Assembly: GCA_017962375.1 (NCBI GenBank)
Contig: JAGCVJ010000014.1
Coordinates: 42,790-106,789 of the forward strand
Origin: Bacteroidales bacterium
GTDB taxonomy: Bacteria > Bacteroidota > Bacteroidia > Bacteroidales > UBA932
DNA length: 64,000 nucleotides
Direction: 5' to 3'
Shown: one piece after another, positions 1 through 17,686 of the stretch
Position numbering within the stretch: the first letter of the stretch is position 1
How the letters are laid out: every line of letters begins with the position of its first letter
The notes under the pieces: model-generated
Seen by the model: only the letters and a program-made list of their open reading frames with translations
Database searches by the model: none
Told to the model about the DNA's origin: nothing
Position numbers and translations under genes: made by a program

Positions 1-1870
1 TCTGAGGATTGGCAGCCCAAGTCTTCCCTCGGTCCTCAAAGCTTGCCATTTCCATAGGATCAGGACTGTATGGTCCCGGGATAGCCTCGCTGCTTCCCAT
101 CGTTGATGCATACAGCGGATATGCCACCCAAAGGCAGGTGTACATGCTGTACTGGTACATGTATGTATAATTGCGGTCTCCGTCTGCAAAGAAGGTGCTT
201 GTGAAGTAGTCTGAGCCTGTTTGAGATGCCGGAAGCTCAAGCCAACCGTTGATTGCCTGGCTTCCACCTTCTCCAGGTTCCTGGCTTACTGCAAGTTCTA
301 CAGAAGATGCTCCTGTATAATTAAGCGTAATGGTGCCGGTCCTTGAATTGGCGCCCGCTGCCTGTGCCGCTACATTAAACGTTATGTTATTGCCGCTTAC
401 TGCAACATTGGTTATCCAGGAAGCATTTGAAGTTGCTGTCAGAGTTACTCCCGATACCGGATTTGTAATCGTATAGCTTGCTGTCTGCGAACCGCCGGCC
501 TTACCTACCACTACAGGGTTGGAGGAGGTGATGCTGATGGCAGGGCCTGTCGGGCCAGATCCCTCCGCGATATACAGAGCCACAGGCTTCTGGCTGGAAG
601 TGTAGCAGCAGAATCGCGGGCTGCTCTGATTGTACTGGAGGGTTCTTGTTGTGGCATTGCCGCAGGCAATCGTAGCCACTCCGCTGCTGATGGAAATGTT
701 CCAGTTATAAGCATCTGCCTGCTCTATGCTGGTATTGCCACTATCCCAGGCCAGATAATTGCCGTAATTGACATCGCCGGATTTATCGTTCTGGATAGTC
801 CAGGAACTTCCATTCTTCTTTAACTTGACAGGAAGCACAGTACTTGTATTGTCCAACACGATAGTATTGCCTGTCTTGGTGATATTTTCACTAGTATGGA
901 TTGTTCCGCTCAAGCCCCCCATGGCTTTATCGAATCCGGAAGCGGCGATGATATAAGTTCCTTCAACCAGGCCGGACTGATTCTGTACCAGAGTATAGGT
1001 TACCGACGTGGAAACCGGAGTTGCATAGCCGCTCATGTTCATTCCGAATCTCGTCATCTTGCCGATCGAGAAGCTCAGAGTTCCTGAGAAGGCGCTTTCA
1101 GGCTTGGTATATGTGTTCTGGTCCGTTGAAACCACCACGCTTGAGAAACCAGCATTCTCTACCGGCATCGCTGTGAAATAAACAGGGAAAGTTCCGTCAG
1201 AAGGAACAACGGCATCGTCATAATTCAACGTTATCTTCTTGCCTCCGTTGGCATAAGTTCCAGCATCGTCGCCAGAAACCACATAATAACCGGTGACTAT
1301 CTTGTCGAATGTAACCTCAACTCTCTTGATTTTCTCGCCCGGAACAAGGCCTTTCAACGTCATCTTGTTAACGGTAATGATTCTCTGCATCATGAACTGC
1401 AGCGAGTTAAGAGCCGTAGCGGATGTTATTTCATCGGTTATCATTCCATCTGCATCCGGGTCATAGGAAGACTCTCCAGGGCTCTGAGTATCCTGAATCT
1501 TTATGTTTCCCTTGTTGCTGAATTCCTTGGCAAACCTTGCCGAATAAACATATTCGTCAGCCTGTACAGTAGCAAACTCCACTGTAAGGTCGATTCTTTT
1601 CATATCGGCGCTATAGTCAATTTCGGTAATGGTTCCCAAAGTCCCGTTCTCATAAATCCTGAAGTATTCGTCATCGCCTTCAGACCAAACATATGAAGCT
1701 TTGTCGTCTCCTTCAACCAATGACGTTTTGGTGTCTGCACCCTTGGTAAAAGAAACCTTGACAGTCCTCTTGTAAACCTCCGGCTGAGGTTCAGACTTGT
1801 CCTTTGCGCATCCCAGCAGCATCGCTGAGACAGCTGCTATCAAACCTATTTTGCAAAATATTCTTTTCAT
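1..1870 (-). CDS. Surface lipoprotein A, 3-prime end cut by window edge: pilin-like N-domain, shared mid module, BACON-like Ig domain, then start of a DNA/RNA non-specific endonuclease-like domain
   Basis: Hand translation from the ATG at 1868-1870 gives MKRIFCKIGLIAAVSAMLLGCAKDKSEP (lipobox LLGC). The frame stays open to position 1, so there is no stop and the ORF is absent from the track. Mid module ends RTLQYNQSSPRFCCYTSSQKPVALYIAEGSG. BACON-like stretch: GGSQTASYTITNPVSGVTLTATSNASWITNVAVSGNNITFNV..RTGTITLNY. The last residues, INGWLELPA..DRNYTYMYQYSMYTCLWVAYPL, resemble the N-terminal part of Endonuclease_NS lipoproteins. Confidence 0.6.
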   Translation of the reverse strand, partial: MKRIFCKIGLIAAVSAMLLGCAKDKSEPQPEVYKRTVKVSFTKGADTKTSLVEGDDKASYVWSEGDDEYFRIYENGTLGTITEIDYSADMKRIDLTVEFATVQADEYVYSARFAKEFSNKGNIKIQDTQSPGESSYDPDADGMITDEITSATALNSLQFMMQRIITVNKMTLKGLVPGEKIKRVEVTFDKIVTGYYVVSGDDAGTYANGGKKITLNYDDAVVPSDGTFPVYFTAMPVENAGFSSVVVSTDQNTYTKPESAFSGTLSFSIGKMTRFGMNMSGYATPVSTSVTYTLVQNQSGLVEGTYIIAASGFDKAMGGLSGTIHTSENITKTGNTIVLDNTSTVLPVKLKKNGSSWTIQNDKSGDVNYGNYLAWDSGNTSIEQADAYNWNISISSGVATIACGNATTRTLQYNQSSPRFCCYTSSQKPVALYIAEGSGPTGPAISITSSNPVVVGKAGGSQTASYTITNPVSGVTLTATSNASWITNVAVSGNNITFNVAAQAAGANSRTGTITLNYTGASSVELAVSQEPGEGGSQAINGWLELPASQTGSDYFTSTFFADGDRNYTYMYQYSMYTCLWVAYPLYASTMGSSEAIPGPYSPDPMEMASFEDRGKTWAANPQ

Positions 1871-1880
1871 GGCAGACATT

Positions 1881-2003
1881 TTAAAAATCACCTTCATCAT
1901 CGTAATCGTCGTCCGGAATAGTATTAGTACTCTGGGCAATGCAATTTTCTGTGCAAACGGCAAAGACCCTGCACTTTGGAACGGAGTATTTCTCCCGCTC
2001 CAT
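1881..2003 (-). CDS. Small acidic ORF A-prime (40 aa), 10 nt upstream of lipoprotein A
   Basis: Hand translation: MEREKYSVPKCRVFAVCTENCIAQSTNTIPDDDYDDEGDF. Shares the Y-x-x-P-x-C-[KR]-V-[YF] core and an acidic aromatic C-terminus with the other cassette ORFs. No signal peptide. Confidence 0.5.
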   Translation of the reverse strand: MEREKYSVPKCRVFAVCTENCIAQSTNTIPDDDYDDEGDF

Positions 2004-2137
2004 TTTGTTAAGGCAAATTAATTTCATCAATTAAAAAATTCTTTTTCCGACCCCAATCACTCAAAATCTGGCCCCGCAAAGTGATGCAAGTTAACAAAAA
2101 ATTCTTTTGGTTCTTTCTTTTCTCAGCCCCAGAAACA

Positions 2138-2171
2138 AAGAAGTCCGGAACCTGATTGTTTCGGACTTCTT
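2138..2171 (-). terminator. Hairpin downstream of lipoprotein B
   Basis: AAGAAGTCCG, a 14-nt loop, then CGGACTTCTT. On the minus strand it is followed by TGTTTCT, a weak U-tract. Confidence 0.45.
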
Positions 2172-2193
2172 GCATCACGACAAAAATCGTGTT

Positions 2194-4029
2194 TTATTTA
2201 GGAGCGCCAGCTCCAGCCTGGGCAATATACAGAAGAACTTCCTCTGTATTCTGCCAAACTCCGTCTACCATATTATAGCAGTAGAACAACTGCATATAGC
2301 CGCTTCTGCCAGAGCTTGAAGTATTCTGAGGAAGAGTAATAGTAAGTGTTCCCGTATTTCCAGATACTGAGTTGCTGGTAGTAAGAGGAATATTATAAGT
2401 AGAAACAGGACCCGACTGCGGCTGGATCTCTCCGTCAGCAGCTGGATACTTGATCTCGTAAGTAACGGTATAGGTACCGCCTGCTGCAGGCAGATACATT
2501 GTGTTGCCTACATAAACCATCGGCTCATATCCTGAAGGAGTGTTGACTCCTGAGGTGAAACGGAATTCAGGAACCGGAACAATTAGCGGATCACCTTCGC
2601 CAGTGCCTTCAAGTTTGTAGATTGCCAACGCTTCTGAAGCCAAGAAGGCATTGTCCATAAAGAATTCTTTATTATTATGATGATAACTCAGATACTTAAA
2701 TCGGCTCGCAGTATTATACGGGGTCATAAAGGCTTCGCCGTTTTCTTCCAGATGAACTTCCCAGCTAATGCCCTTCTCAGTCTCAGTAGAAGAACAGTTA
2801 TACAAATAAGTCCACTGGCTATAGTTGGAGCTAGGAGAAGAAGTTATCAAGGCGCCAATATACTTGTTGGCAAACTCCCCATTCTTGCACTCGAGCATAA
2901 CTGTATTCTTGCCGCTTCCCTTCTTCAGGGTGAATACCTGAACATCATCGCCAGGATTCTCGATAGTGGCCTTGTCTGAACTCTTAACGATATCAGCCTC
3001 TTTTCTCCAAGGGTAAGACCACATTTCTGTTGCCATTGCCTTGTCGTAAACGGTTGACGCAATCACGAACTCAGAGCCTGCGGTAAGCTCAGAATAATCG
3101 GTGACAAGCTTATACTGCAGAGGCTCTGGAGTGATGCCGCTCATGTTGAGATTGAAGGATGCAACCTGTCCCATCTTGAAATTGCCCTTTCCAGAAGGGA
3201 ATGTAACTTCCTTGGTGAAAACTCCTGCATCGGTCTTAACCTTTACAGTAAGTGTCTTGCCTTCCAGGTTTACAGGAAGAACTGAGAACCAGAACACCTT
3301 GCTGGCGTTGCTCTCTGCAGAAAGCTTGGAAGGATTGAGAGTCAGATACTTGTTCTGCTCAAATCCACCGGTGTAATACTCGTTTTCAGGATACATGGAG
3401 TTTCCTGTCAGGTACTCGGTAGAAGAAAGCTCAATGCTCTTGATGGTAACATCCTCAGGGAAGTTCTTGAGCATGAATTTTCCGTATGCTGCAATGTGGG
3501 AGAACTTGAGAGTTATCTTCTCAGGCATTGCGTTGGCAACAATAGCATGGTCAAGCGATGCAAACAGAATATGCGCTGCCTCATCGACAGATGTCATAGT
3601 AGGAGTCTGCTCCGAAGGAACTGCAAATCCCAATCCCCATCCGCCGTTATTTCCTGTGAAAGCGGTAGCAGGACTGACAGCCTGAAGCCAAAGCTCTGTG
3701 TCATCCTGTGGAAGATTGCTGAACTGAGCGTCAAAAGAAGCGGTTTTGCCGTCTCCTGAAGGAATGACGGTTGCCTCGTCAGACCAGTTTACGTTCAAGC
3801 TGAAGATAACCTTAACTTTCTGGTCTGCAGACCATACGGTTGGATAACCCTCAGATGTCTTGTCGCCGAAGTAAGTCTTTGTAGAAGGCTCCTGGGTCTG
3901 GGCGTTGAAGCTGATTTTAACAGCCTGCCTTTCCTGCTCTTTTGCAAGAGGAGAACTATCCTTGCTGCAGCTGATGAATGAAGTTGCAACTACTGCAACT
4001 ACTGCGAATAAACTGAAATACTTTCTCAT
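2194..4029 (-). CDS. Modular surface lipoprotein B: pilin-like N-domain, mid module, Ig/BACON-like C-terminus
   Basis: ORF track, 611 aa. Lipobox FISC followed by SKDSS. N-domain is paralogous to C, D and E (FSHIAAYGKFMLKNFPE, SNASKVFWFSV, FPSGKGNF). Mid module ends ALAIYKLEGTGEG. Confidence 0.85.
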   Translation of the reverse strand: MRKYFSLFAVVAVVATSFISCSKDSSPLAKEQERQAVKISFNAQTQEPSTKTYFGDKTSEGYPTVWSADQKVKVIFSLNVNWSDEATVIPSGDGKTASFDAQFSNLPQDDTELWLQAVSPATAFTGNNGGWGLGFAVPSEQTPTMTSVDEAAHILFASLDHAIVANAMPEKITLKFSHIAAYGKFMLKNFPEDVTIKSIELSSTEYLTGNSMYPENEYYTGGFEQNKYLTLNPSKLSAESNASKVFWFSVLPVNLEGKTLTVKVKTDAGVFTKEVTFPSGKGNFKMGQVASFNLNMSGITPEPLQYKLVTDYSELTAGSEFVIASTVYDKAMATEMWSYPWRKEADIVKSSDKATIENPGDDVQVFTLKKGSGKNTVMLECKNGEFANKYIGALITSSPSSNYSQWTYLYNCSSTETEKGISWEVHLEENGEAFMTPYNTASRFKYLSYHHNNKEFFMDNAFLASEALAIYKLEGTGEGDPLIVPVPEFRFTSGVNTPSGYEPMVYVGNTMYLPAAGGTYTVTYEIKYPAADGEIQPQSGPVSTYNIPLTTSNSVSGNTGTLTITLPQNTSSSGRSGYMQLFYCYNMVDGVWQNTEEVLLYIAQAGAGAPK

Positions 4030-4036
4030 TTTAATT

Positions 4037-4042
4037 TCCTCC
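4037..4042 (-). promoter_or_regulatory. Shine-Dalgarno-like GGAGGA, 7 nt before the ATG of lipoprotein B
   Basis: Minus strand reads CTTTAAAATCAGAGGAGGAAATTAAAATG. The stop of the small ORF lies 8 nt upstream of the GGAGGA. Confidence 0.5.
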
Positions 4043-4049
4043 TCTGATT

Positions 4050-4187
4050 TTAAAGATCACCCCAGTCCTCTTCTGGTGAAGGGTCAACCTCGTCGCCTGA
4101 GCTCATTGTGGCGATAGTGCCCTCTAATTTAACGGAATACACTTTGCAAAAAGGCTTAGCATATTCCTCTCTCTTGTGTGTTATCAT
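4050..4187 (-). CDS. Small acidic ORF B-prime (45 aa)
   Basis: MITHKREEYAKPFCKVYSVKLEGTIATMSSGDEVDPSPEEDWGDL. This is the 3-prime part of track ORF 4050..4286. The internal ATG at 4187 is preferred because of homology with D-prime and E-prime, and because the promoter-like box lies downstream of the longer start. Confidence 0.6.
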   Translation of the reverse strand: MITHKREEYAKPFCKVYSVKLEGTIATMSSGDEVDPSPEEDWGDL

Positions 4188-4255
4188 AATTGTTATACGT
4201 ATAATAATATATTTTTCAACTAGTATTCTTCGCAGAAAATCGCGAAAAAGCGGCG

Positions 4256-4264
4256 CAAAGTTTA
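4256..4264 (-). promoter_or_regulatory. Imperfect Bacteroidetes -7-like box (TAAACTTTG) upstream of B-prime
   Basis: Minus strand CTAAACTTTGCGCCGCTTTTTCG. The context matches the box upstream of D-prime (GCTAACTTGCGCCGCTTTTTTCG). Confidence 0.4.
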
Positions 4265-4272
4265 GAATAAAA

Positions 4273-4310
4273 GTCCAAAAAAGCAAGAGCTCGGCGCAAT
4301 ACCGAGCTCT
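4273..4310 (-). terminator. Intrinsic terminator of lipoprotein C
   Basis: AGAGCTCGG, a 7-nt loop, then CCGAGCTCT. Followed on the minus strand by TGCTTTTTTGG. Lies 32 nt after the stop codon. Confidence 0.75.
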
Positions 4311-4341
4311 ATTCCATTTAGAAATCTCAAAAAGAGGTAAG

Positions 4342-5664
4342 TTAGTTCTCGTAGGTTACATCGATATTGTAAGCCTTAACTCCACTGTAAATGTTAGTAA
4401 CAATTATTGTTAAAACTTTTCCTGTTTCTACTGTCGTTGAACTAACAGTCACATCAGGCGTACCCCAAAGTGATCCGCTTCCTACAGCAGTGTCACCTAC
4501 CTTCAAGGTTATTAAGCCATCCGTATCATCGTCAACTCCGCCCAATTTGATAGATAGACTCTTAATTTTTGCAGATCTCTCAAGCGTCGTGGTAAATGTT
4601 ATTGAGCCGGCAGCCCAATGCTCATCGCCAATAATGCTGAAATCAGTCTCCTGATCATAATCAGGGTTCTGAGTAGTGGTAATAGTCCAAGTATTTCCCT
4701 GGCTATCATTACCCGTAACTGTAGCTGCATTAATCTTGGTGCGACCGGTTCCGCTGCCAAATTGAATCGTTGCTGTCTTTTCAACAAGAGGCATTTCGAT
4801 AGTGAATGAAGCAACCCTTCCGGCCTGGAAATTACCTTTTTCTGCAGGGAAAGTGATGGTCTTAACATAATCCCCTACATTGGTGTGTACAGTAACTTTC
4901 AGGTTCTTGCCCTGCAGATCAACAGGCTTAACAGCAAACCAGAAAACTTTGCTTGCATTGCTCTCGGCAGATATCGCTGAGACATTAAGGCTAATAGTCT
5001 TAGAAGCGGTTTTATCTGCATAAGTTCCAGTTGCAGGATAGAAATAAACACTTCCTGCAATATTCTCGTCTGCCTCAAGGTCAATGCCAGAGATTGTTAC
5101 ATCCTCAGGGAAATCTTTGAGTGTAAATCTTCCGTAAGCCGCAATGTGAGAGAAAGAAAGAGATACATTATCAGGGAAAGTAGTAAATGTTGCAGACTTG
5201 GCGGCCATAATGTGAGCAGCTTCATCTACAGAGCTCATGGTCGGAGTCTGAGTTGCAGGAAATACAACTTCAACACGACTAGATGCAGCTTCCCAGGAAC
5301 TAGCGGCTACAGCTGGGCTGAGAGCATAGAACACATAGTTTCCACTGCCATCATCTGTGACCTCAGCATTGAAAGTAGCAGTCTTGCCGTCTGCAGAAGG
5401 AGTTACATCTGCCTGAACGGCATTGGCATAGTTAAGAGCAACGCTAACCTTCTGGGTTGAAGTCCAAATAGTTGGATAACCTGACGAAGTCTTGTCACCG
5501 AATTGAGTCTTAGTAGCTGGGTTAGAAGATTTAGCAATGAAGGTTACCTTTTTGGCTATAGAATCTGAAAGATTCTCCACATCTTCATTTTTGCTGCAAC
5601 TTGCCACAGTCAATCCAGCAACGGCTGCAAGGCATAAAAAACTAAAAAACTTGTTCATTTTCAT
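4342..5664 (-). CDS. Modular surface lipoprotein C: pilin-like N-domain plus a short C-terminal beta-rich module, no mid module
   Basis: ORF track, 440 aa. Lipobox VASC followed by SKNEDVEN. N-domain close to D (SVDEAAHIMAAKSATF, LKVTVHT, TITFPAEKGNFQAG). The GGAGGA position favours the second ATG at 5658. Confidence 0.85.
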   Translation of the reverse strand: MKMNKFFSFLCLAAVAGLTVASCSKNEDVENLSDSIAKKVTFIAKSSNPATKTQFGDKTSSGYPTIWTSTQKVSVALNYANAVQADVTPSADGKTATFNAEVTDDGSGNYVFYALSPAVAASSWEAASSRVEVVFPATQTPTMSSVDEAAHIMAAKSATFTTFPDNVSLSFSHIAAYGRFTLKDFPEDVTISGIDLEADENIAGSVYFYPATGTYADKTASKTISLNVSAISAESNASKVFWFAVKPVDLQGKNLKVTVHTNVGDYVKTITFPAEKGNFQAGRVASFTIEMPLVEKTATIQFGSGTGRTKINAATVTGNDSQGNTWTITTTQNPDYDQETDFSIIGDEHWAAGSITFTTTLERSAKIKSLSIKLGGVDDDTDGLITLKVGDTAVGSGSLWGTPDVTVSSTTVETGKVLTIIVTNIYSGVKAYNIDVTYEN

Positions 5665-5670
5665 TCCTCC
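5665..5670 (-). promoter_or_regulatory. Shine-Dalgarno-like GGAGGA before lipoprotein C
   Basis: Minus strand TTTAAAATTATGGAGGAATGAAAATGAAC. The spacing fits the second ATG. Confidence 0.45.
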
Positions 5671-5676
5671 ATAATT

Positions 5677-5733
5677 TTAAAGATCATCCCAGTCTTCTTC
5701 TGGTGAAGGGTCAACTTCGTCGCCAGAGCTCAT
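5677..5733 (-). pseudogene. Truncated small ORF C-prime: only the conserved 18-codon tail remains (MSSGDEVDPSPEEDWDDL)
   Basis: The tail is near-identical to B-prime, D-prime and E-prime. The upstream in-frame sequence (..DSSLTLCHFSASVA) has lost the EEY..P.C.VYS half. It may still be translated from its own ATG. Confidence 0.35.
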
Positions 5734-5757
5734 AGCAACACTGGCGGAAAAGTGACA

Positions 5758-5765
5758 CAAAGTTA
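5758..5765 (-). promoter_or_regulatory. Exact TAnnTTTG -7 box (TAACTTTG), 24 nt upstream of the C-prime ATG
   Basis: Minus strand TTTAACTTTGTGTCACTTTTCCGCC. Confidence 0.5.
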
Positions 5766-5800
5766 AAGAAGAGTCAACTAAAATTGCAAATCACAGTAAA

Positions 5801-5831
5801 ACAAAAAACGGGCAGGATTTTGTCCTGCCCG
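5801..5831 (-). terminator. Intrinsic terminator of lipoprotein D
   Basis: CGGGCAGGA, a 5-nt loop, then TCCTGCCCG. Followed on the minus strand by TTTTTTGTTTT. Confidence 0.8.
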
Positions 5832-5856
5832 CCCTAAAAGTACTATTCGAAAAAAA

Positions 5857-7956
5857 TTATAATGCAAATGATGCGCTCTTAAACTCAAAGTATCTGTTAT
5901 TATTGCCATTTACATGCACATTGTAGGTAATTTTGTAATAACAGTTGCTCCAGTCTTGTCCGCTAGGTTTTGTGATTGTTACAGATCCGTTTGCGCTGAA
6001 AGAAGGAGTTGCAGTGTAAACTGGATTTGAGAAGTCTGCGTTCTTTGATACAACAACAGTCATGGAATTTACCGTAATCTTGCTAGCAGCGCCATGAGAA
6101 ATTACAATAGAGCTGAAATCTTGCTCAAAAGCTGTTGTACTGAAAATTGTCCTGTCTACATCATCTAGCTGTTTGCCACCAATTCTCCACGGATTTTCTG
6201 TAGTGTTACCCATAACTTTCCAAGAGATATCTCCCTGAGTTATATTTGATTCTGTAGCGTAGCCATTGTCGCCACCAGTTACGGAACCGTCAAGAGTATA
6301 ACCGGAAACGAATGTTGCTGAAATTTCAACATCTGATGTTCCAACAGTGAAGGTTGCAACAGCAGTGTTGCCGCTAACTGTTGCACCAGTTACATACCAT
6401 GAGGAGAATGCGGAACCGGAAGCTGCAGTTGCAGTCAGAGTAACAGTTTTGCCTTCCTGAACCTTAGTGCCAGAAGCTATCTCGTCTCCATCAACGGTAA
6501 CAACGAAGGAGCCTCCAGTCAGTGGCTGGGTGTAGGTAATGGTATGTTTAACTTCGGCTACCAATGGATCACCGGAACCGGTGCCTTCAAGCTTGTAGAT
6601 GGCAACATCCTGCTGACCTGAAGCATAGCAAGCAAAAAGTTTCGCACCATTGTTGAATCTCAGAATGTTGCTTGAATACTGCTTGGCGGATAACTCAGCT
6701 ACACCATCACTGCCAAGGATTACGCCGAATGAAGTATTGTCACCTTTTGTGCTAAAGGTCTTCAAATAATTGCCCCCATTAGCAGAACCAATATAATAGT
6801 CCTCAACAAGGATACCTCCGTTGTTGCCTTTGAATGCAACGGTATTTGTTATCGTGCCTGCCTCAAGGAGGAATGTCTGAACGGCATCACCAGGGTTGAC
6901 AACAGTGTTTGTACCCTTGGTTATAGCAGCGGCAGCTCTGTTATTACCGTTGTCGGTAGTGCCAAGAGCATAATCTGCTTCATTTGCTACAATGATAACC
7001 TCAGAATTAGCGGTAAGCTCGTCATAGCTGGTAACAAGTGTATAAATCTTGTCAGCAGCTGGGGTTATTCCATTAAAGTCGATGTTGAAGGCTGCAACCT
7101 TTCCAGCCTGGAAATTGCCCTTGCCGGAAGGGAAAGTGATGGTCTTTACGTAATCGCCTCCATCGGTATGAACGGTGACTTTCAGGTTCTTGCCCTGCAG
7201 GTCAACTGGCTTGATTCCAAACCAGAACACCTTGCTTGCATTGCTCTCGGCAGAAATCGCTGAGGAGCTAATGCTAACGGTCTTTGCTGCAGAATTGTCT
7301 GCATACTCGCCGGTCTCAGGATAGAAGTAAACTCTTCCAACAATGTTCTCGTCTGCGGTAAGATCAACGCCTGTGATAGCAACTGTCTCAGGGAAGTTCT
7401 TGAGCATGAACTTTCCGTATGCTGCAATATGAGAGAAAGTCAAAGAAACTGAAGACTCTTCTGAAGGGAACTCAGTAAATGTAGCGGACTTGGCTGCCAT
7501 AATGTGAGCTTTCTCGTCAACAGAACCCATTGTAGGTGCCTGATTTGCCGGGAAGTCTACCTGAACGCTCTGATAACTAGCGTTCCAGGAAATAGCGGCA
7601 ACGGCTGGACTGAGAGCGTAGAAAACATAATTACCGCTTTCGTCATCATTAACTGTTACGGTGAAAGTAGCGGTCTTGCCATCTGCAGAAGGGGTTACGG
7701 TAGCCTGCTTTGCATTGGCAAAGTTAAGAGCTATGCTAACCTTCTGGTTGCTTGTCCACACTGTTGGATAACCAGCGGAAGTCTTATCACCAAAAATGGT
7801 CTTGGTGTCTGGATTAGCAGATTTAGCGTTGAAGCTAACCTTCTTTACAGGGGATGTAGGAAGATTCTCTTCTATTTCATTTTTGCTGCAGCTGGCCAAT
7901 GTCATGGCAGCAATGGCAGCAAGGCATAAATAATTAAAGAACTTTTTCATTTTCAT
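5857..7956 (-). CDS. Modular surface lipoprotein D: pilin-like N-domain, mid module, InlB-B-repeat-like module, C-terminal beta-rich module
   Basis: ORF track, 699 aa. Lipobox LASC followed by SKNEIEEN. Mid module ends VAIYKLEGTGSG. Repeat-like segment: HTITYTQPLTGGSF..GSAFSSWYVTGATVSGN. The second ATG at 7950 is favoured by the GGAGGA position. Confidence 0.85.
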   Translation of the reverse strand: MKMKKFFNYLCLAAIAAMTLASCSKNEIEENLPTSPVKKVSFNAKSANPDTKTIFGDKTSAGYPTVWTSNQKVSIALNFANAKQATVTPSADGKTATFTVTVNDDESGNYVFYALSPAVAAISWNASYQSVQVDFPANQAPTMGSVDEKAHIMAAKSATFTEFPSEESSVSLTFSHIAAYGKFMLKNFPETVAITGVDLTADENIVGRVYFYPETGEYADNSAAKTVSISSSAISAESNASKVFWFGIKPVDLQGKNLKVTVHTDGGDYVKTITFPSGKGNFQAGKVAAFNIDFNGITPAADKIYTLVTSYDELTANSEVIIVANEADYALGTTDNGNNRAAAAITKGTNTVVNPGDAVQTFLLEAGTITNTVAFKGNNGGILVEDYYIGSANGGNYLKTFSTKGDNTSFGVILGSDGVAELSAKQYSSNILRFNNGAKLFACYASGQQDVAIYKLEGTGSGDPLVAEVKHTITYTQPLTGGSFVVTVDGDEIASGTKVQEGKTVTLTATAASGSAFSSWYVTGATVSGNTAVATFTVGTSDVEISATFVSGYTLDGSVTGGDNGYATESNITQGDISWKVMGNTTENPWRIGGKQLDDVDRTIFSTTAFEQDFSSIVISHGAASKITVNSMTVVVSKNADFSNPVYTATPSFSANGSVTITKPSGQDWSNCYYKITYNVHVNGNNNRYFEFKSASFAL

Positions 7957-7962
7957 TCCTCC
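7957..7962 (-). promoter_or_regulatory. Shine-Dalgarno-like GGAGGA before lipoprotein D
   Basis: Minus strand TTTAAAATTATGGAGGAATGAAAATGAAAAAG. Confidence 0.45.
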
Positions 7963-7968
7963 ATAATT

Positions 7969-8112
7969 TTAAAGATCACCCCAGTCTTCTTCTGGTGAAG
8001 GGTCAACTTCATCGCCAGAGCTTAAAGTAGCAATGGTGCTCTCGAAATTTACGGAATACACTCTGCAAACTGGAGCAGTGTACTCCTTTTCCGTGTTAAA
8101 ATTGAACTTCAT
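7969..8112 (-). CDS. Small acidic ORF D-prime (47 aa)
   Basis: Hand translation: MKFNFNTEKEYTAPVCRVYSVNFESTIATLSSGDEVDPSPEEDWGDL. Confidence 0.6.
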   Translation of the reverse strand: MKFNFNTEKEYTAPVCRVYSVNFESTIATLSSGDEVDPSPEEDWGDL

Positions 8113-8163
8113 TTTTATAAATATGTATTATTATTTTTGTTCGATTAGGTCGAAAAAAGCGGC

Positions 8164-8171
8164 GCAAGTTA
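8164..8171 (-). promoter_or_regulatory. Imperfect -7-like box (TAACTTGC) upstream of D-prime
   Basis: Minus strand GCTAACTTGCGCCGCTTTTTTCG. Context conserved with the B-prime box. Confidence 0.35.
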
Positions 8172-8264
8172 GCATAATAAATTTGACACTTCCAAATTTT
8201 TTGGCGGAAAAACTCAAAAAATACCACTCAGCGGTGCATTACAGGCCTGTTTTGTAACATCTAT

Positions 8265-8302
8265 GACAAAAACAAAAGCGGGCAGGAATATCCCGCCCGC
8301 TT
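8265..8302 (-). terminator. Intrinsic terminator of lipoprotein E
   Basis: AAGCGGGCAGG, a short loop, then CCCGCCCGCTT (one mismatch). Followed on the minus strand by TTTTGTTTTTGTC. Confidence 0.75.
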
Positions 8303-8324
8303 AAATGCTAATACGTTCCAGAAT

Positions 8325-11246
8325 CTATTCGGCATTAACTCCCCAAACTACAAAACGTTTCCCTGTTGTTGCTGTAAGAGTCAATTGCTTATCCTGAGTC
8401 ATACCAGAAAGCGATATCTCAAAATAGTAATTTGCAGGTGCTCCACTCAAAGTAAATGGAGTATTATTACTGATTCCAGCATCACTAGTCAAAGACAAAA
8501 CAGATGGTGTTGCATCAACACCAGACAAAGTAATCTTGACTGTTTCGTTATTCCAAGCAGCGATATGAACATGAAGTTTGGTTGTTCCAGAAGGAACAGT
8601 AATTATCATTGCGCCAGCCTTACTGCTTGTTCCACACTTTATTGCATTATATTCGGTATTTGAAATAACAACTTTTGCTGCAGTTGCACTAGTTCCACCG
8701 CTAGTGCTTAGTGTTACATTACTTGTATTAATATCAGAATAATCCCCACCTGCCTCTGAGTCAAACCTTGCTGCTATAGAAACATCTGACGTTCCCATAG
8801 TGAAAGTAGCAGTTTCAGTGTTTCCGCTTACGGTAGCTCCAGAAACTGTCCAGCTAGTAAAGTTGTAGCCAGAAGCTGGAGTTGCAGTAAGGGTAACTAC
8901 TGTACCTTCCAAAACTTCAGTTCCTGAAGATATGGCAGAACCATTAACCTTTACGGTGAATGAGCCTCCAGCTGATGGCTGAGTAAATGTAACAGCATGT
9001 GCAGTAGGAGTATGGGCTTGGGTAATGGTAATGCCATCGGTAGACCAAACCTTTATCTGGTCATTGTTGTTATACCATGCTATAGTTCCCACTGCAGTAA
9101 TAACATCTCCTTCGGCAAGTCCGGAAGGAACTCCTGCGGCAGCATAAACCACATATGTATTGCTTCCATTCTTGACAGAAATGTTCTTATCGTTAATTCC
9201 GGTCACCTCAAGGTCATTGACCTGAACATATGCACTCTGATATGTACTGAGATTCCCAACAAGCTGAGAGAGTGTGAATACCTGAGGAGCTACCGTTGCC
9301 TGCGAACCGGTAAAGTTGGCAGTCAGGGCTGTGATTTCAGCACAATTGTGGTACATCGTAGCTGTTACGGTTATTGGACCTGACAATGTCTGACCCTGTA
9401 GCAAACCATGATCTGTTACAAAAACCAATGTAGAACCTGTAGCGTCTTTGATTACTGCATTCTTTGTATCAGGAACAAATGAAATTACTGCATTGGTAAG
9501 AGTTCCGGAATAATCACCTGCAGTAGCTGCCAGAGCGTTGAGTTGGGCAACTGTGGTGAAATCTGAACCAGGAGTGCTTACTTCACACTCTTTCTCTGCG
9601 ATATCACTCATGTTATAACCTGGAGCTCCGGCAAATGCCTTGACTGTGCAAGTTTCAGTGATTGTAAACGGCTCAGTATATTCCTGAGTAGTTCCGATAG
9701 GATTACCGTCATCATCGATACCAGGAGTAGTTCCATCAGTGGTATAGCCGATTCTTGCACCTGATGCGGAGCAAGTGATGGTAACGGTATTCGTTGAAGA
9801 ATTGAACGATATTTCTGGAGTTGGACACTTAGGATCATCAATCAGAGATGAGCCTTCTCCACTTCCTTCGAGTACATATACAACAACTTCCTTCTGACCA
9901 GAAGCATAGCAAGAGAAGATTGGAGGATTATTGCCGCTATTGTATTTAATAATATTACGAGTATTTTCCCCGCTAGCTTTCAATACGGTATAACCATCCT
10001 CAATTGTTACGCTGAAAGAAGCATTTCCATCCTTGGTGTCCTGACTCTTAAGATAATTTGAACCAGAACTTGCAGCATAAATATACTTATCTGTCTGATC
10101 ACCGTTTACGCACTTGAATGCAACTGTGTTGGATTCAGTACCGGCCTCAAGAGTGAATATCTGAACAGCATCGCCAGGATTGGTAATAGTTTTAAGATCT
10201 TCGCTCTTATCAACATCAGTATGAGCTCTATTATTACCATTCTGAGTAGTGCTCATTGCTTTTGCATAATCCTTAGCAACAATTATTGCCTTTGCACCAG
10301 GAAGCAATTGCTTCTTGTCAGTGAGGATTTTATAAACCTTGTCTTCTCCAGGAGTGATGCCTGCCATGCTGATTGTAAATGTAGCAACTTTTCCAGCCAG
10401 GAAGTTACCCTTACCGGTAGGGAATGTGATGGTCTTTGCATATACTCCAGCATCTGTATGAACAGCAACCTTAAGAGTCTTACCCTCCAGATTTACAGGC
10501 TTAAATGAAAACCAGAAATCGGTGGTGTTATTCTTATCTATCTCAAGGTCTGAAACATCAAGATTAACGCTGTTGCCAGCAGAATTTACTTCATAAGACC
10601 CGTCTGAAGGTTTGAAACGGAATCTTCCTGCAACCTGCTCCTGTGCGGTAAGCTCAATGCTGTTGATTGTAACAGTTTCAGGCAGGTTCCTGAACTGGAA
10701 CTTACCATAAGCAGCAATGTGAGAGAAAATCAGTGTAACAGGAGTAGTCTCCTCTGGGAACTCAGAGAATGTAGCTGACTTGGCCGCCATTATATGAGCC
10801 TTTTCATCAACGGAATTCAGGGTTGGTTTCTGTGATGCTGGGAAGTCAACCTGAACGTTGCTGTTATCTGCATTTGCATTCCAGTTTATCACTGAAGCAG
10901 CAGGGCTTAAGGCATAGAAAACATAACTATCCTGTCCGTCATCTTCAATGGTAGCATTGAAAGTAGCGGTTTTACCATCTGAGCTAGGAGTTACCTCTGC
11001 CTGCTTAGCAGAACCGAAGTTAAGGGAAATGCTAACCTTCTCGTTTTCTGTCCAAACGGTAGGATAACCAGCATCTGTCTTGTCGCCGAAAGCGGTCTTG
11101 GTGGAAGGATTGGAAGCCTTTGCACTGAAAGAGATCTTCTTTACAGATTTTTCAGGAAGGTTCTCAACAGTCTCGTTTTTGCTGCAGCTTGCCAGTGTCA
11201 GACCAGCTATGGCAGCAAGGCATAAGTAATTAAAGAACTTTTTCAT
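8325..11246 (-). CDS. Modular surface lipoprotein E, the largest: pilin-like N-domain, mid module, CHB_HEX_C-like segment, OB-fold-like (DUF5689-type) module, InlB-B-repeat-like module, C-terminal module
   Basis: ORF track, 973 aa. Lipobox LASC followed by SKNETVEN. Segments: ARIGYTTDGTTPG..TVKAFA; DFTTVAQLNAL..VIKDATGS..IKVWSTDGITI; HAVTFTQPSAGGSF..GYNFTSWTVSGATVSGN. Confidence 0.85.
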   Translation of the reverse strand: MKKFFNYLCLAAIAGLTLASCSKNETVENLPEKSVKKISFSAKASNPSTKTAFGDKTDAGYPTVWTENEKVSISLNFGSAKQAEVTPSSDGKTATFNATIEDDGQDSYVFYALSPAASVINWNANADNSNVQVDFPASQKPTLNSVDEKAHIMAAKSATFSEFPEETTPVTLIFSHIAAYGKFQFRNLPETVTINSIELTAQEQVAGRFRFKPSDGSYEVNSAGNSVNLDVSDLEIDKNNTTDFWFSFKPVNLEGKTLKVAVHTDAGVYAKTITFPTGKGNFLAGKVATFTISMAGITPGEDKVYKILTDKKQLLPGAKAIIVAKDYAKAMSTTQNGNNRAHTDVDKSEDLKTITNPGDAVQIFTLEAGTESNTVAFKCVNGDQTDKYIYAASSGSNYLKSQDTKDGNASFSVTIEDGYTVLKASGENTRNIIKYNSGNNPPIFSCYASGQKEVVVYVLEGSGEGSSLIDDPKCPTPEISFNSSTNTVTITCSASGARIGYTTDGTTPGIDDDGNPIGTTQEYTEPFTITETCTVKAFAGAPGYNMSDIAEKECEVSTPGSDFTTVAQLNALAATAGDYSGTLTNAVISFVPDTKNAVIKDATGSTLVFVTDHGLLQGQTLSGPITVTATMYHNCAEITALTANFTGSQATVAPQVFTLSQLVGNLSTYQSAYVQVNDLEVTGINDKNISVKNGSNTYVVYAAAGVPSGLAEGDVITAVGTIAWYNNNDQIKVWSTDGITITQAHTPTAHAVTFTQPSAGGSFTVKVNGSAISSGTEVLEGTVVTLTATPASGYNFTSWTVSGATVSGNTETATFTMGTSDVSIAARFDSEAGGDYSDINTSNVTLSTSGGTSATAAKVVISNTEYNAIKCGTSSKAGAMIITVPSGTTKLHVHIAAWNNETVKITLSGVDATPSVLSLTSDAGISNNTPFTLSGAPANYYFEISLSGMTQDKQLTLTATTGKRFVVWGVNAE

Positions 11247-11252
11247 TTTAAT

Positions 11253-11258
11253 TCCTCC
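11253..11258 (-). promoter_or_regulatory. Shine-Dalgarno-like GGAGGA, 6 nt before the ATG of lipoprotein E
   Basis: Minus strand TTTAAAATTTACAGGAGGAATTAAAATGAAAAAG. Confidence 0.5.
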
Positions 11259-11266
11259 TGTAAATT

Positions 11267-11410
11267 TTAAAGATCACCCCAGTCTTCCTCTGGTGAAGGG
11301 TCTACCTCGTCGCCAGAACTCATAGTAGTAATGGCGCCTTCCAAATTGATAGAGTATACTTTGCACTGTGGTGCAAGATACTCTTCTGATTTGATGAACT
11401 TGAGTTGCAT
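11267..11410 (-). CDS. Small acidic ORF E-prime (47 aa)
   Basis: Hand translation: MQLKFIKSEEYLAPQCKVYSINLEGAITTMSSGDEVDPSPEEDWGDL. Starts only 35 nt after the stop of lipoprotein F, with no hairpin between them. Confidence 0.6.
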   Translation of the reverse strand: MQLKFIKSEEYLAPQCKVYSINLEGAITTMSSGDEVDPSPEEDWGDL

Positions 11411-11445
11411 TGTGTCTGTTATTTAATTTTTAGCTAAAAATATAA

Positions 11446-13611
11446 TTATTCAAATGTAACCTTGATGCCCTTAATACGTCTGTGTCCTGTAGTTCCGGTT
11501 ACTGTAAATGTAACAGCGCTAGAAGATCCAGTCCAAACACCAGTAGAATTATTATAAGTTACAACATCAGTAGAAATAGCATTTGATCCGTCACCAGAAC
11601 CGAAGGTAAGCTCAATCATGCTTATCTTCTTGCTAGAGTCGTTAGCGGTAACAGTGAAGTAGCCGCCACCGTAAACTCTTACAGCAGTTCCTGTAGTGTA
11701 GTATTTAGGAGTGTTGCTGTTGGTACCCTTGTCAAATGTGACAGTTGCATTGGTGCCTGTTACGGTCTTTACTTCCTGTGCATTTGAATAACCTGTAGAC
11801 AAGTCAAAGGTCTCGGTGAGAACGCTTGAAGACTCAAGGTTAGCTACAATGTTGATGTCAGCAGTACCTACCTTGAAGGTTACAACATGGGAAGTGGTGC
11901 TGCTGAGATTTACTGCATTGGTAATGCTCCAGGTGGTGAAGTTATAACCGCCAGTCAATACTATCTCGGCCTTTACTTCAGTGCCTTCAATATACTTGGC
12001 GCCTGAAGTGATTTCAGTTCCGCCAACAGTTACTTTGATAGAACCGCCGGCTTCCGGCTGGGTAAAGTTGATGGCGTGCTCTGTTGGAGTGTGCTCGGTA
12101 ATGGTTAAGTCATCAGCCTTCCAAACCTTGAGCTCTTTGAATACAGTATCGTCCTTCTTAAACTGTGTAACGGTTCCGATTACTGTAATCTTATCACCTA
12201 CAACACAGGTTGGAGTGCCATAGTTGCAGTATACGATGAAACCGGTATACTCTCCATCTGTAACGGTAACGTTCTTTCCATCAACAGCAGTAACTTCAAC
12301 ATTTTCAAGCTTAGCGTATGTGTTCTGATAAGTATTATACTGCCAGCCCATATTGAAGATAGTCAATACCTGAGGATCAACTACAGCGCCTTCACCAGTG
12401 AATGTGGCATCCATGGTGGTGATCTCAGAATAGAGGCTCTGGTAATTCTGGAGGGTAACTGTGATGTTGCCGGTATAGGTCTGGCCCTGCTTCAAGCCGT
12501 GGCCGGACTTGTAGTACATAACTGAACCTGTTCCGTCTGTAATGATGGCAACAGTAGTATTAGGAACAAATGAAACAACTGCATTGGTGAGCTTACCTGT
12601 CTTGGATGTTGGGGTTTCGCCAACTTCATCAGCAAGTTCGTTGAGCTCTGCAACAGTTGTGAAGTCGAAAGTTTCGAGAGTCTTGTCGTAAGCGAAAGCT
12701 ATCTTCTTCATCTTGCCAGCCTTGAACTCATAGTCCTTGTCTGCAGAGATAACCTTTTCCTGAGCTCCGTTGGATGCGGTAACGGTGATGGTGAAGTCAT
12801 CGCCTTCGTTAACAACGAAAGGCTTAACTGCAAGATAGAAAGTGGCCTTTTCGCCTGCTGCTATTGCCTCGCCGCTGTTTACAACCAGGTTAGCTACGTT
12901 GCTTACATAGGTTTCGCCGCTTGGGGTGAAGCCAGGATTGTAAGGATCTGTGAAATCGATGTAGTAGGTACCTACGATATCAACTCCGTCGGCTGTGATG
13001 GAAATGCCGGAAACTGTAATAGCTTCTCCTTTCTTTGTAGCGTTCTCAACCTCAACCTCAATAAGAGAGGAAAGATGCCTCATCTGGATAACAGGCCTTT
13101 CGTCGCCAGAAATTTTAGATGCTACACCTGCGATAGGATAGTTGTTGCCGGAAATATGAGCAGTGCTGTTGTTGCCCTTCTGAGTCTGGTTGCCCTTTGC
13201 GGTGGATCCTACAGTCACATAACCTGCAGATGTGTTGGCAGGAGTGGTGATCTGCTTTGTGTAAGGATAGAAAGCGTACCAGTTGTAGGTCTTGGTTTCA
13301 TCAAAGCTGGCATCAAGGGTTCCTGTGAAGGTGGCGGTTGCGCCTGCAGCTGATGTCTTGAACTGGCCGTCGCTGACATAAGCAGGAGTATCCTCGCCAG
13401 CAACATTGTGGAACAGGTTGATAGCGTCATTGGCAGCCCACAGCGTCTTCATGCCGTCATTGGTGGTCTTGGTGTTGACGCCGTTAAGAGTTACTGAGAA
13501 ATCGGTCTTCTCGATTTCCTTCATTCCGGTATCGTTCTTAGAACATCCGGTGAATGCAATGGCAGCTACTGCCAAAGCACTCAAAACGTAAGATTTGAAT
13601 TTCTTTGTCAT
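11446..13611 (-). CDS. Modular surface lipoprotein F: divergent pilin-like N-domain, OB-fold-like module, InlB-B-repeat-like module, C-terminal module
   Basis: ORF track, 721 aa. Lipobox FTGC followed by SKNDTG. Segments: NTKTTNDGMKTLWAANDAINLF, YAFYPY, MRHLSSLIEVEV; FTTVAELNEL..AIITDGTGS..LKVWKADDLTI; HAINFTQPEAGGS..GYNFTTWSI; C-terminus PKYYTTGTAVRVYGGG. Confidence 0.85.
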   Translation of the reverse strand: MTKKFKSYVLSALAVAAIAFTGCSKNDTGMKEIEKTDFSVTLNGVNTKTTNDGMKTLWAANDAINLFHNVAGEDTPAYVSDGQFKTSAAGATATFTGTLDASFDETKTYNWYAFYPYTKQITTPANTSAGYVTVGSTAKGNQTQKGNNSTAHISGNNYPIAGVASKISGDERPVIQMRHLSSLIEVEVENATKKGEAITVSGISITADGVDIVGTYYIDFTDPYNPGFTPSGETYVSNVANLVVNSGEAIAAGEKATFYLAVKPFVVNEGDDFTITVTASNGAQEKVISADKDYEFKAGKMKKIAFAYDKTLETFDFTTVAELNELADEVGETPTSKTGKLTNAVVSFVPNTTVAIITDGTGSVMYYKSGHGLKQGQTYTGNITVTLQNYQSLYSEITTMDATFTGEGAVVDPQVLTIFNMGWQYNTYQNTYAKLENVEVTAVDGKNVTVTDGEYTGFIVYCNYGTPTCVVGDKITVIGTVTQFKKDDTVFKELKVWKADDLTITEHTPTEHAINFTQPEAGGSIKVTVGGTEITSGAKYIEGTEVKAEIVLTGGYNFTTWSITNAVNLSSTTSHVVTFKVGTADINIVANLESSSVLTETFDLSTGYSNAQEVKTVTGTNATVTFDKGTNSNTPKYYTTGTAVRVYGGGYFTVTANDSSKKISMIELTFGSGDGSNAISTDVVTYNNSTGVWTGSSSAVTFTVTGTTGHRRIKGIKVTFE

Positions 13612-13622
13612 AACTGCTGATT

Positions 13623-13775: not shown

Positions 13776-13834
13776 AATATGTTAATGTTGTAATAATTCT
13801 ACTGCGCTCCGGGGGCAATACCCCATAGAGCATT

Positions 13835-14487: not shown

Positions 14488-14503
14488 CTGCGTTGGGTTT
14501 AGG

Positions 14504-15394: not shown

Positions 15395-15400
15395 TTGCTG

Positions 15401-17668: not shown

Positions 17669-17686
17669 TGTTGCAGACTATAGCCG

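Follow-up and report, generated by a model that had tools for sequence, protein, structure and literature searches.

Organization of the lipoprotein gene array

Six paralogous lipoprotein genes, A to F, were called as ORFs in tandem on the minus strand at positions 1-13611 of the window (the whole 64,000-nucleotide stretch of DNA analysed). The array derives from the genome of an uncultured rumen Bacteroidales and its neighbours are housekeeping genes (DUF456, OstA-like protein, PPIase, IMPDH and DUF362). The first-pass annotation had described six proteins with a common N-domain and different module sets, and both the ORFs and an all-against-all BLASTP comparison bear this out. The genes, their modules and the supporting evidence are as follows:

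11446..13611 (-): gene F, 721 aa; divergent pilin-like N-domain 12682-13611, tandem 'OB-like' module 12052-12681, InlB-B-repeat-like module 11812-12051, C-terminal module type F 11449-11811 (ORF, BLASTP to E and D, jackhmmer modules)
8325..11246 (-): gene E, 973 aa; N-domain 10347-11246, β-trefoil 9813-10346, CHB_HEX_C/Fn3_assoc 9567-9812, 'OB-like' module 8982-9566, InlB B-repeat 8712-8981, C-terminal module type E 8328-8711 (ORF, Pfam, BLASTP)
5857..7956 (-): gene D, 699 aa; N-domain 7042-7956, β-trefoil 6523-7041, InlB B-repeat 6262-6522, C-terminal module type D 5860-6261 (ORF, Pfam, BLASTP)
4342..5664 (-): gene C, 440 aa; N-domain 4771-5664, C-terminal module type C 4345-4770 (ORF, BLASTP)
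2194..4029 (-): gene B, 611 aa; N-domain 3130-4029, β-trefoil 2584-3129, BACON-like Ig domain 2197-2583 (ORF, Pfam, BLASTP, hhalign)
2..1870 (ORF 2-1900) (-): gene A, partial, cut by the window start; N-domain about 956-1870, β-trefoil 467-955, BACON 206-466, start of the Endonuclease_NS region 2-205

The annotated start of gene A overlaps the small ORF upstream of it, and its true start is probably at window position 1870. A conserved acidic ORF of approximately 47 aa, a new finding and overlooked by current annotation, lies upstream of each array gene, with only a remnant at C. The small ORFs and the transcription signals identified around the genes are:

13623..13775 (-): small acidic ORF before F, 50 aa
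11267..11410 (-): small acidic ORF before E, 47 aa
7969..8112 (-): small acidic ORF before D, 47 aa
5677..5739 (-): 3′ remnant of the small ORF before C, 5′ part lost
4050..4187 (-): small acidic ORF before B, 45 aa
1881..2003 (-): small acidic ORF before A, 40 aa, divergent
8276..8302 (-): downstream of gene E, terminator-like hairpin with a 12-pair stem and then a T-run
5805..5835 (-): downstream of gene D, hairpin resembling a terminator
4286..4310 (-): downstream of gene C, hairpin resembling a terminator
8164..8196 (-): promoter-like motif of the Bacteroidetes type, TTTG ... TAACTTGC, ahead of the D cassette

Small ORFs are found ahead of family genes in all related loci examined, and the remnant before C is shared with the related contigs L001, L003 and L007. 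A dN/dS of about 0.18 across copies indicates purifying selection. The copies before E, D and B are nearly identical despite the different ends of these genes, and as such the small ORFs do not co-vary with the tip. Similar -7 boxes occur at about 13842, 5765 and 2093 as pattern matches only, and a promoter function for all of these boxes is predicted from the sequence.

A pilin-like base shared by the six proteins

The N-domain common to A-F comprises approximately 300 aa. By BLASTP it is most conserved between C and D (71% identity; E 2e-143), followed by C-E (59%) and D-E (55%), while B shares 38-45% identity with the others and A and F approximately 25% (E 1e-7 to 1e-21). An AF2 model of the C N-domain (pLDDT 88.4), compared against known structures with Foldseek, consists of N- and C-terminal transthyretin-like β-sandwiches, a fold like that of type V (FimA/Mfa) pilins. 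The best PDB matches are the Bacteroidales FimA-superfamily 'cell adhesion' proteins 3t2l, 3ufi, 3sy6, 4rdb and 4k4k (E 1e-8 to 1e-7), and the Mfa3 tip (5nf4) and Mfa2 anchor (5nfi) pilins are also among the matches. Except for 3gld-type noise, the top 13 are all Bacteroidales pilin-superfamily structures (E 1e-8 to 5e-5), with a TM of only about 0.5. No pilin family of Pfam or NCBIfam matches the N-domain at E <= 0.1.

All six proteins carry a signal peptide with a lipobox Cys (e.g. LASCSK, FISCSK, LLGCAK, FTGCSK). The residues from the lipid Cys onwards (CSKNE, CSKND, CSKDS, CAKDK) place a Lys at +2 and then N/D and E/D, resembling, as an inexact match, the Bacteroidetes surface lipoprotein export signal, which is K-(D/E)2 or Q-A-(D/E)2 after Cys+1 (PMC5080379). 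Furthermore, at least 109 of 126 family members combine the lipobox with a [ST][KR][TS]xFG motif 24-30 residues past the Cys (K in 89, R in 20), and most of the 17 sequences shown as missed by this expression carry an S-K/R or T-K-S variant. In the model of the C N-domain the motif sits in a low-pLDDT loop directly after strand 1. This position agrees with the pilin layout, where an anchor strand is followed by a β1-β2 loop with an Arg/Lys protease site (PMC13655056), and cleavage may likewise occur here. No C-terminal donor strand is evident from the sequence, the next folded module beginning within about 10 residues of the pilin unit, which is consistent with the tip/accessory class of pilins that lack donor strands (PMC13655056). 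No stalk or anchor pilin gene is found among the immediate neighbours of the array, nor is a pilin family among the 25 of 54 Pfam families shown for the remainder of the window.

A β-trefoil family and variable C-terminal ends

The N-domain is followed in A, B, D and E by a mid module common to the four proteins (BLASTP), all of whose translations contain the end peptides by which this module had been recognised in the first-pass annotation. The AF2 model (pLDDT 97.2) is a twelve-strand β-trefoil, with 39 PDB matches at E <= 1e-3 in Foldseek and trefoils throughout the top 50 listed, including lysenin, FRG1, botulinum HA33 and fascin (E about 1e-4, TM up to 0.65). Across 39 members of the module, no Pfam β-trefoil family, Ricin-B and fascin included, gave a significant match. 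Single weak matches were obtained at E 0.009-0.07 to Fascin (the best, 0.009, in one member), DUF569 and the ulvan-lyase trefoil. The family has conserved motifs of its own (STTQN-NNR, NTRN-LRYN and FSCY-SGQ), comprises more than 6000 cluster representatives and is absent from Pfam and NCBIfam, such that a very large β-trefoil family missing from the domain libraries searched is exposed. It recurs in proteins of the Oscillospiraceae/Ruminococcaceae, 6/48 of those scanned also carrying an Endonuclease_1 domain. The latter is unrelated to the Endonuclease_NS of A, so that the trefoil family is linked in two phyla to nucleases of two separate families, and most trefoil proteins are without a nuclease.

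Pfam confirms the BACON domain previously proposed in A (E 1.7e-5; score 25.1 against a gathering cutoff of 25), the InlB B-repeat (Flg_new_2) in D and E (37.7 and 55.5, respectively; cutoff 23.6) and CHB_HEX_C_1/Fn3_assoc in E (CHB_HEX_C_1 45.8; cutoff 22). The last domain of B is BACON-like as had been suggested (hhalign against BACON, 97.9%), while the nuclease-like domain seen to start in A corresponds to PF01223 Endonuclease_NS in full-length A orthologues (805-834 aa). Two modules, the N-domain and the mid module, were identified with AlphaFold and Foldseek, and two domains that previously had no name are now named. The shared modules are truly homologous by BLASTP and profile searches, with 44% identity between E(562-830) and F(316-594) and 57% between D(471-573) and E(750-845). 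The 'OB-like' designation could not be upheld, as a weak PF01336 match is found in only one of 11 members (E 0.004) and a PDB profile search returned no match. C-terminal modules are indeed present in C, D, E and F as annotated, but they represent four sequence-unrelated types (hhalign probability 26% or less) rather than a single shared module. Only A ends in an enzyme, the other five tips being Ig-like or other small all-β modules. Among 125 family members the C-terminal ends form at least 22 sequence clusters, and five different ends occur on the six closest relatives of E, which argues against simple deletion from one ancestral architecture.

Module exchange between related genomes

Comparison was made with related loci, which without exception come from metagenome contigs or MAGs. 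Against these relatives, array blocks reach 97-100% identity, compared to about 77% in the housekeeping flank, the latter also being the flank identity to contig L001. Identity to L001 reaches 97.6-99.4% over E residues 466-767 (CHB plus 'OB'), the region that starts with the D small ORF and reaches D residue 555, all of C, and the mid module of B (residues 315-493). Module swapping between relatives is directly supported. The breakpoint check places many block ends within about 15 residues of module junctions (E, 466 vs 478 and 767 vs 755; D, 555 vs 565; B, 315 vs 300 and 493 vs 482), in agreement with the shuffling proposed earlier. The N-domain and mid module of D are 97-99% identical to L001 while its C-terminal module is only 77% identical, and C is 99-100% identical to its counterparts in L001 and L003. 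Identity swings between about 75% and about 99% at least five times within 11 kb, reproduced against L001 and L003.

Locus content and gene ends also differ among relatives. Gene content varies among L001, L003, L005, L008 and L013; F is matched in L013 by an orthologue of 62% identity at the corresponding site and is absent from L001. The homology of E to all relatives stops at about window position 8781, and in L004 a body 98% identical to that of E carries a non-homologous end module.

A proposed surface-binding function and its alternatives

Uncultured rumen Bacteroidales are major fibre degraders whose adhesion targets are mostly obscure. We suggest that the array probably encodes exchangeable surface proteins that resemble tip pilins and serve as adhesins or binding proteins, with a nuclease among them. 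The array consists of six cassettes, most seemingly transcribed separately, in which a promoter-like box and the acidic ORF precede a large lipoprotein gene that is usually followed by a terminator hairpin. From its signal peptide and lipobox Cys, every lipoprotein is predicted to run through an anchor strand and a flexible Lys/Arg loop to the two transthyretin-like sandwiches, a base without an evident donor strand that matches the layout of tip or accessory pilins. The tips would be ligand-binding or enzymatic modules, namely the lectin-like β-trefoil, CHB_HEX_C, InlB B-repeat, BACON, the tandem β module ('OB-like'), several unrelated end modules of approximately 130 aa and, in A, a DNA/RNA non-specific endonuclease. 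The proteins are most likely displayed on the cell surface, attached by their lipid and anchor strand or else carried on the tip of a pilus that has its stalk gene at another locus, and may serve in adhesion or capture with specificities that differ between them. Diversity arises through cassette gain and loss, and through homologous recombination and horizontal exchange among related rumen lineages, in which entire modules are swapped and the crossovers frequently lie in conserved linkers and 5′ ends.

An overlapping explanation that specifies the ligand is the capture and degradation of extracellular nucleic acid at the surface, for nutrient scavenging or biofilm remodelling, with the trefoil and 'OB-like' modules binding DNA or RNA and A degrading it. 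Endonuclease_NS ends A and several relatives (including P0120), the trefoil family also occurs with Endonuclease_1, weak PF01336 matches exist (including P0041), and surface lipoprotein DNases of Bacteroides provide a precedent (PMC8851478). We nevertheless consider it unlikely, given that most trefoil proteins lack a nuclease, most structural matches to the trefoil are lectins for sugars or lipids, with fascin and FRG1 in addition, an OB fold could not be confirmed and the array holds no gene for a TonB-dependent transporter or nucleoside uptake. The array could also be read as ordinary tandem paralogues that arose by duplication and domain deletion, the mosaicism being an artefact of chimeric metagenome assembly. 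The paralogues within the window are old (62-86% nucleotide identity), no inverted repeats were found among them, and the comparison loci are all metagenomic. This is improbable, however, as three independent L001-type assemblies agree at 99.9-100% identity over 13-20 kb, the identity alternations are reproduced against two contigs, and the non-homologous ends on near-identical bodies in L004 and E run counter to it.

The first-pass annotation had likened the constant anchor and variable tips to adhesin or polymorphic effector families. The pilin-like base fits the former. The latter is not supported: only A is enzyme-ended, immunity genes are lacking downstream and no toxin-delivery domain was found. 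The variable ends, the nuclease of A and a small ORF adjoining every gene would fit a toxin system with a constant delivery domain and small immunity proteins. Such a system is nonetheless very improbable: the small ORFs lie upstream rather than downstream and show no covariation with the tip, five of six tips belong to no toxin family, the N-terminus is a lipoprotein pilin-like unit instead of a T5/T6/T7 or Rhs delivery module, and each gene is followed by a terminator and the next cassette.

Returning to the array as a set of tip-pilin-like binding proteins, we raise tentatively, as a joint and rather doubtful proposal, that the acidic ORF and lipoprotein gene form an obligate, undescribed two-gene unit and that the trefoil is a new nucleic-acid- or glycan-binding extracellular domain. 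The small cytoplasmic protein may be dedicated to these surface proteins, in their biogenesis or in the control of their expression, for instance by linking or limiting the expression of different cassettes, and could as such be a new factor by which type V pilin-like proteins are made or regulated. Should the trefoil bind nucleic acid or glycan, the array would represent a horizontally traded rumen surface-capture toolkit. The locus provides a concrete, testable case of surface-binding diversification in rumen Bacteroidales, in which lineages about 23% diverged in their housekeeping flank exchange entire folded modules carried on a pilin-like base.

Comparison with known systems

Polymorphic toxins (CDI, Rhs, MAF) share with the array a constant N-terminal part, exchangeable C-terminal ends and recombination at conserved junctions. 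They differ in that the array has no immunity genes, a single secreted-type nuclease as its only toxin-like end, and a lipoprotein anchor rather than a secretion-system delivery domain. The mid module has the same fold as the trefoil lectins and related proteins (botulinum HA33, lysenin C-domain, fascin/FRG1), at 10-18% identity. The JCSG FimA-superfamily structures 3t2l (BF1858), 3ufi (BACOVA_04980) and 4k4k (BACUNI_00621) are the best structural matches of the N-domain (E about 1e-8, full-length alignment), at about 12-15% identity and a TM of about 0.5, but consist of the pilin unit alone (256-278 residues).

Type V tip and accessory pilins, namely Mfa3/Mfa4/Mfa5 and FimC-E of P. gingivalis and BovFim1C and the DGR-diversified BfrT/BthT of Bacteroides, share the lipoprotein precursor, double transthyretin-like sandwich, anchor strand, basic-residue loop and lack of an evident donor strand, as well as a variable tip with a ligand-binding head beyond the pilin unit (PMC13655056; bioRxiv 10.1101/2024.11.15.621889). 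In contrast to these, the array has neither an anchor or stalk pilin gene nor a Pfam pilin match, its extensions are chains of up to five modules, it varies by recombinational module swapping and not by DGR mutagenesis, and every one of its genes has its own small upstream ORF.

Modular architecture of the array

Each of the six minus-strand paralogs, lying 5′ to 3′ on that strand in the order F, E, D, C, B, A, encodes a product with an N-terminal signal peptide and lipobox cysteine. A small acidic ORF is located 5′ of every large gene, its stop codon lying 10-20 nt ahead of the lipoprotein ATG, and the two together are termed a cassette.

Genes and small ORFs of the array, 5′ to 3′ on the minus strand (window coordinates)
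13623-13775, minus strand, small ORF before F
11446-13611, minus strand, gene F, 721 aa
11267-11410, minus strand, small ORF before E
8325-11246, minus strand, gene E, 973 aa
7969-8112, minus strand, small ORF before D
5857-7956, minus strand, gene D, 699 aa
5677-5739, minus strand, small ORF before C, 3′ remnant only
4342-5664, minus strand, gene C, 440 aa
4050-4187, minus strand, small ORF before B
2194-4029, minus strand, gene B, 611 aa
1881-2003, minus strand, small ORF before A
2-1900, minus strand, gene A, ORF truncated by the window start

The first-pass annotation had proposed modules common to several of these proteins, and these were recovered by all-against-all BLASTP; the four peptide strings it quoted are present in the translations. 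An N-domain of ~300 aa is common to 6/6 proteins, with amino acid identities of 71% (C-D), 59% (C-E) and 55% (D-E), 38-45% for B against the others, and about 25% for A and F (e-values: 1e-7 to 1e-21). The mid module (~170 aa) occurs in A, B, D and E. E and F share a ~200-aa module plus an InlB-B-repeat (44% identity), and the InlB-B-repeats of D and E share 57% identity. Pfam agreed with the earlier calls of BACON (A), Flg_new_2 (D and E) and CHB_HEX_C_1/Fn3_assoc (E), as did profile comparison with that of a BACON-like last domain in B (97.9%). The N-domain, the mid module, the 'OB-like' module and the end modules have no match in Pfam or in NCBIfam, where no relevant family was recovered for the array proteins, and PDB sequence searches with A and with E returned no match. 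The G+C content of the array (41-48%; window 1-14000) is lower than that of the adjoining housekeeping block (52-55%; 14001-22000), which is consistent with horizontal origin or turnover.

Two of the earlier labels call for revision. Under 'C-terminal module' stand four different end types, in C, D, E and F, none of which hhalign relates to another (probability 26% or less), and a single shared C-terminal module was therefore rejected. The 'OB-like' label finds only a weak PF01336 match in 1/11 members, and the PDB profile search was empty. Homologs of the F end module comprised unnamed fragments only. Across 125 family members the last 130 residues fall into at least 22 clusters, and five different end clusters are found among the six nearest relatives of E.

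A pilin-like N-terminal domain

A model of the N-domain (C residues 22-298; pLDDT: 88.4), built from a multiple alignment, matches structures of the Bacteroidales FimA/Mfa (type V pilin) superfamily, the best being 3t2l, 3ufi, 3sy6, 4rdb and 4k4k (e-values: 1e-8 to 1e-7), with the Mfa3 tip (5nf4), Mfa2 anchor (5nfi) and DUF1812 (3gf8) ranked lower. Strand 1 (C residues 37-46) leads into a loop of low model confidence that includes T51-K52-T53, and a [ST][KR][TS]xFG motif is located 24-30 residues past the lipid Cys, with K in 89/126 and R in 20/126 family members. Type V pilins are lipoproteins built of two transthyretin-like sandwiches, in which the N-terminus supplies an anchor strand and the β1-β2 loop contains a protease site (Arg46 in FimA) (PMC13655056). 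The N-domain appears to follow this layout, with a candidate anchor strand and a conserved basic residue in the loop. C-terminal donor strands are used by stalk and anchor pilins and are absent from tip pilins (PMC13655056). The array proteins appear to be without an evident donor strand, since the next module directly abuts the pilin unit.

The array neighbors encode DUF456, an OstA-like protein, a PPIase and an IMPDH, with DUF362 on the far side of the array in relatives. No anchor or stalk pilin gene was seen among these neighbors and the 25 of 54 Pfam families listed for the rest of the window, which, judged by those families, looks like housekeeping sequence. DUF4953 (Met-zincin), DUF5117 and DUF5118 occur in two ORFs of the scanned set (about 36968-42252, minus strand), probably adjacent 849- and 871-aa ORFs encoding tandem putative secreted zinc proteases.

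A mobile β-trefoil domain

The mid module, aligned in 39 diverse copies, gave an AlphaFold model (pLDDT: 97.2) for which the top 50 PDB matches listed by Foldseek are all β-trefoils, among them fascin, FRG1, FGF, IL-1, the botulinum HA33 lectin and the lysenin C-domain (e-value: about 1e-4; TM-score: up to 0.65; identity: 10-18%). Searched with a profile of the module, 1.84 billion cluster representatives yielded 6257 proteins at E ≤ 1e-3, of which 1692 reach E ≤ 1e-30; in these the module is found N-terminally, internally or C-terminally, with one to six copies per protein in proteins of up to 4025 aa (set P0179-P0323). Partner domains in 48 scanned trefoil proteins included Listeria-Bacteroides repeats (7), Endonuclease_1 (6), Big_2 (4), BACON (2) and CHB_HEX_C (2). 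On the basis of the modelled fold, the spread in the profile search and the variety of Pfam partners, the mid module is a mobile β-trefoil domain of a very large family absent from the searched Pfam and NCBIfam copies. Its named members derive from Oscillospiraceae/Ruminococcaceae, some of whose proteins combine the module with Endonuclease_1, Listeria-Bacteroides repeats or Peptidase_C10.

The small acidic ORF

The first-pass annotation did not list the small ORF as a partner of the large genes. Its products (40-50 aa) are without a signal peptide and have a conserved core, EY-xP-C-VYSV-xE-xIA, followed by an acidic tail (e.g. SSGDEVDPSPEEDWGDL). They have no match in Pfam or NCBIfam, and a profile search recovered 58 clusters, all unnamed and all from Bacteroidales metagenomes. 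A dN/dS of about 0.18 across nine distinct 47-codon copies indicates that the small ORF is protein-coding and evolves under purifying selection. At all related loci examined a large gene, nearly always a recognizable family member, lies directly 3′ of the small ORF; downstream of the most distant copy (locus L010) is a 522-aa protein with an hhalign probability of only 20% against the N-domain profile. The truncated remnant before C occurs at the same site in the related loci L001, L003 and L007, and yet no other gene of the array is as well conserved as C (99-100% identity across lineages).

Transcription signals

Strong terminator-like hairpins are located 3′ of E, D and C, and pattern matches to Bacteroidetes-type -7 boxes (TAACTTTG/TAACTTGC) precede most cassettes, together suggesting that the cassettes may be separate transcription units. 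A sigma-70 promoter scan was at chance level, as is expected in Bacteroidetes. Over window 1-14500 Rfam yielded only a sub-threshold L20_leader match (8264-8396, minus strand; 28.4 bits, gathering score 58.7), which overlaps the terminator hairpin after E and is most likely due to chance. Window 1-14000 contains no inverted repeats of ≥30 nt, on which basis a nearby invertible promoter or shufflon was rejected, and no recombinase gene was seen adjoining the array.

Variation between lineages and module exchange

The closest relatives are the rumen MAGs RUG13464 and RUG11482 and a water-buffalo rumen Bacteroidales bin; a related-locus search with one of the alignments recovered only three genome loci. 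The chromosomal site of the array is fixed and its gene content varies. F is absent from L001 and has orthologs in L008 and L013. In L003 its place is taken by a different family member and a duplicated DUF456 fragment; here (L003:5689-9676) the 883-aa family member has a complete DUF456 gene on one side and a DUF456 fragment of 131 aa on the other, an arrangement resembling a cassette-insertion scar. L005 retains E and A alone, with toxin-antitoxin, Fic and ATPase genes in between. The array is interrupted or flanked in L005:1-12000 and L013:8510-11050 by Fic, RelB/PIN, HepT, PDDEXK_2 and AAA ATPase genes, which are typical accessory or defence-island content. On another rumen contig (L012:1-12153) a tyrosine recombinase gene (Phage_integrase) is surrounded by six or more small-ORF/pilin-like cassettes, which occupy both strands, and two of the large genes end in Endonuclease_NS.

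The housekeeping flank shares 77% DNA identity with L001, and within the array near-identical blocks alternate with segments of 60-85% identity.

Near-identical blocks shared with L001 (window coordinates)
8947-9851, E residues 466-767 (CHB plus 'OB'), 99.1%
6292-8022, from the small ORF before D to D residue 555, 97.6%
4002-5636, the whole of C with the C-B spacer, 99.4%
2552-3087, B residues 315-493 (trefoil), 97.6%
1633-2127, from the B-A spacer to A residue 80, 99.8%

Five block ends are no more than about 15 residues from a module junction (478, 755, 565, 300 and 482), and further ends map to the conserved signal-peptide region. In comparisons with four different relatives, the homology of E ends at about window 8781, the InlB/end-module junction of E, and resumes at 8156. 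The related locus L004 matches E at 98-100% identity as far as about residue 800, where a D-type end follows. Near-identical blocks on a 77% flank, ends near junctions and the different ends on the relatives of E support the module shuffling proposed from the sequence. Paralogs inside the window are only 62-86% identical and long inverted repeats are lacking, which points to neither recent conversion within the genome nor an invertible element; as judged from these DNA comparisons, the exchange runs between lineages.

Proposed role of the array

The best-supported reading is that A-F are putative tip-pilin-like surface lipoproteins, in which a conserved pilin-fold base would present interchangeable binding modules and, in A, a nuclease. 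The proteins may either cap pili with a stalk encoded at another locus or remain monomeric on the outer membrane. Diversification of the family is best explained by cassette turnover and by linker recombination between rumen Bacteroidales lineages. A ligand-specific variant, in which the array captures extracellular nucleic acid, is suggested by the recurrent association of trefoil and nuclease in two phyla.

A toxin/immunity system is poorly supported: in their C-terminal halves the small ORFs of E, D and B are almost the same although the ends of the downstream proteins differ, which argues against an immunity role. The same applies to pure duplication-deletion or an assembly artefact, given that the L001 type was assembled three times independently with 99.9-100% agreement, which speaks against an artefact and rules out a chimeric contig as the source of the mosaic.

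Modular surface proteins are already known, as are pilin-like bases carrying variable heads, and Bacteroides tip adhesins combine a pilin N-domain with a variable ligand-binding head; their genes, unlike the array described here, lie at the ends of operons that also contain anchor and stalk genes (bioRxiv 10.1101/2024.11.15.621889). What is new in comparison is the particular architecture of the array proteins, the identification of two previously unnamed domains (the N-domain and the mid module), the small ORF as an obligate-looking companion of the family genes, and direct evidence of module-level exchange between lineages whose housekeeping flank is about 23% diverged.
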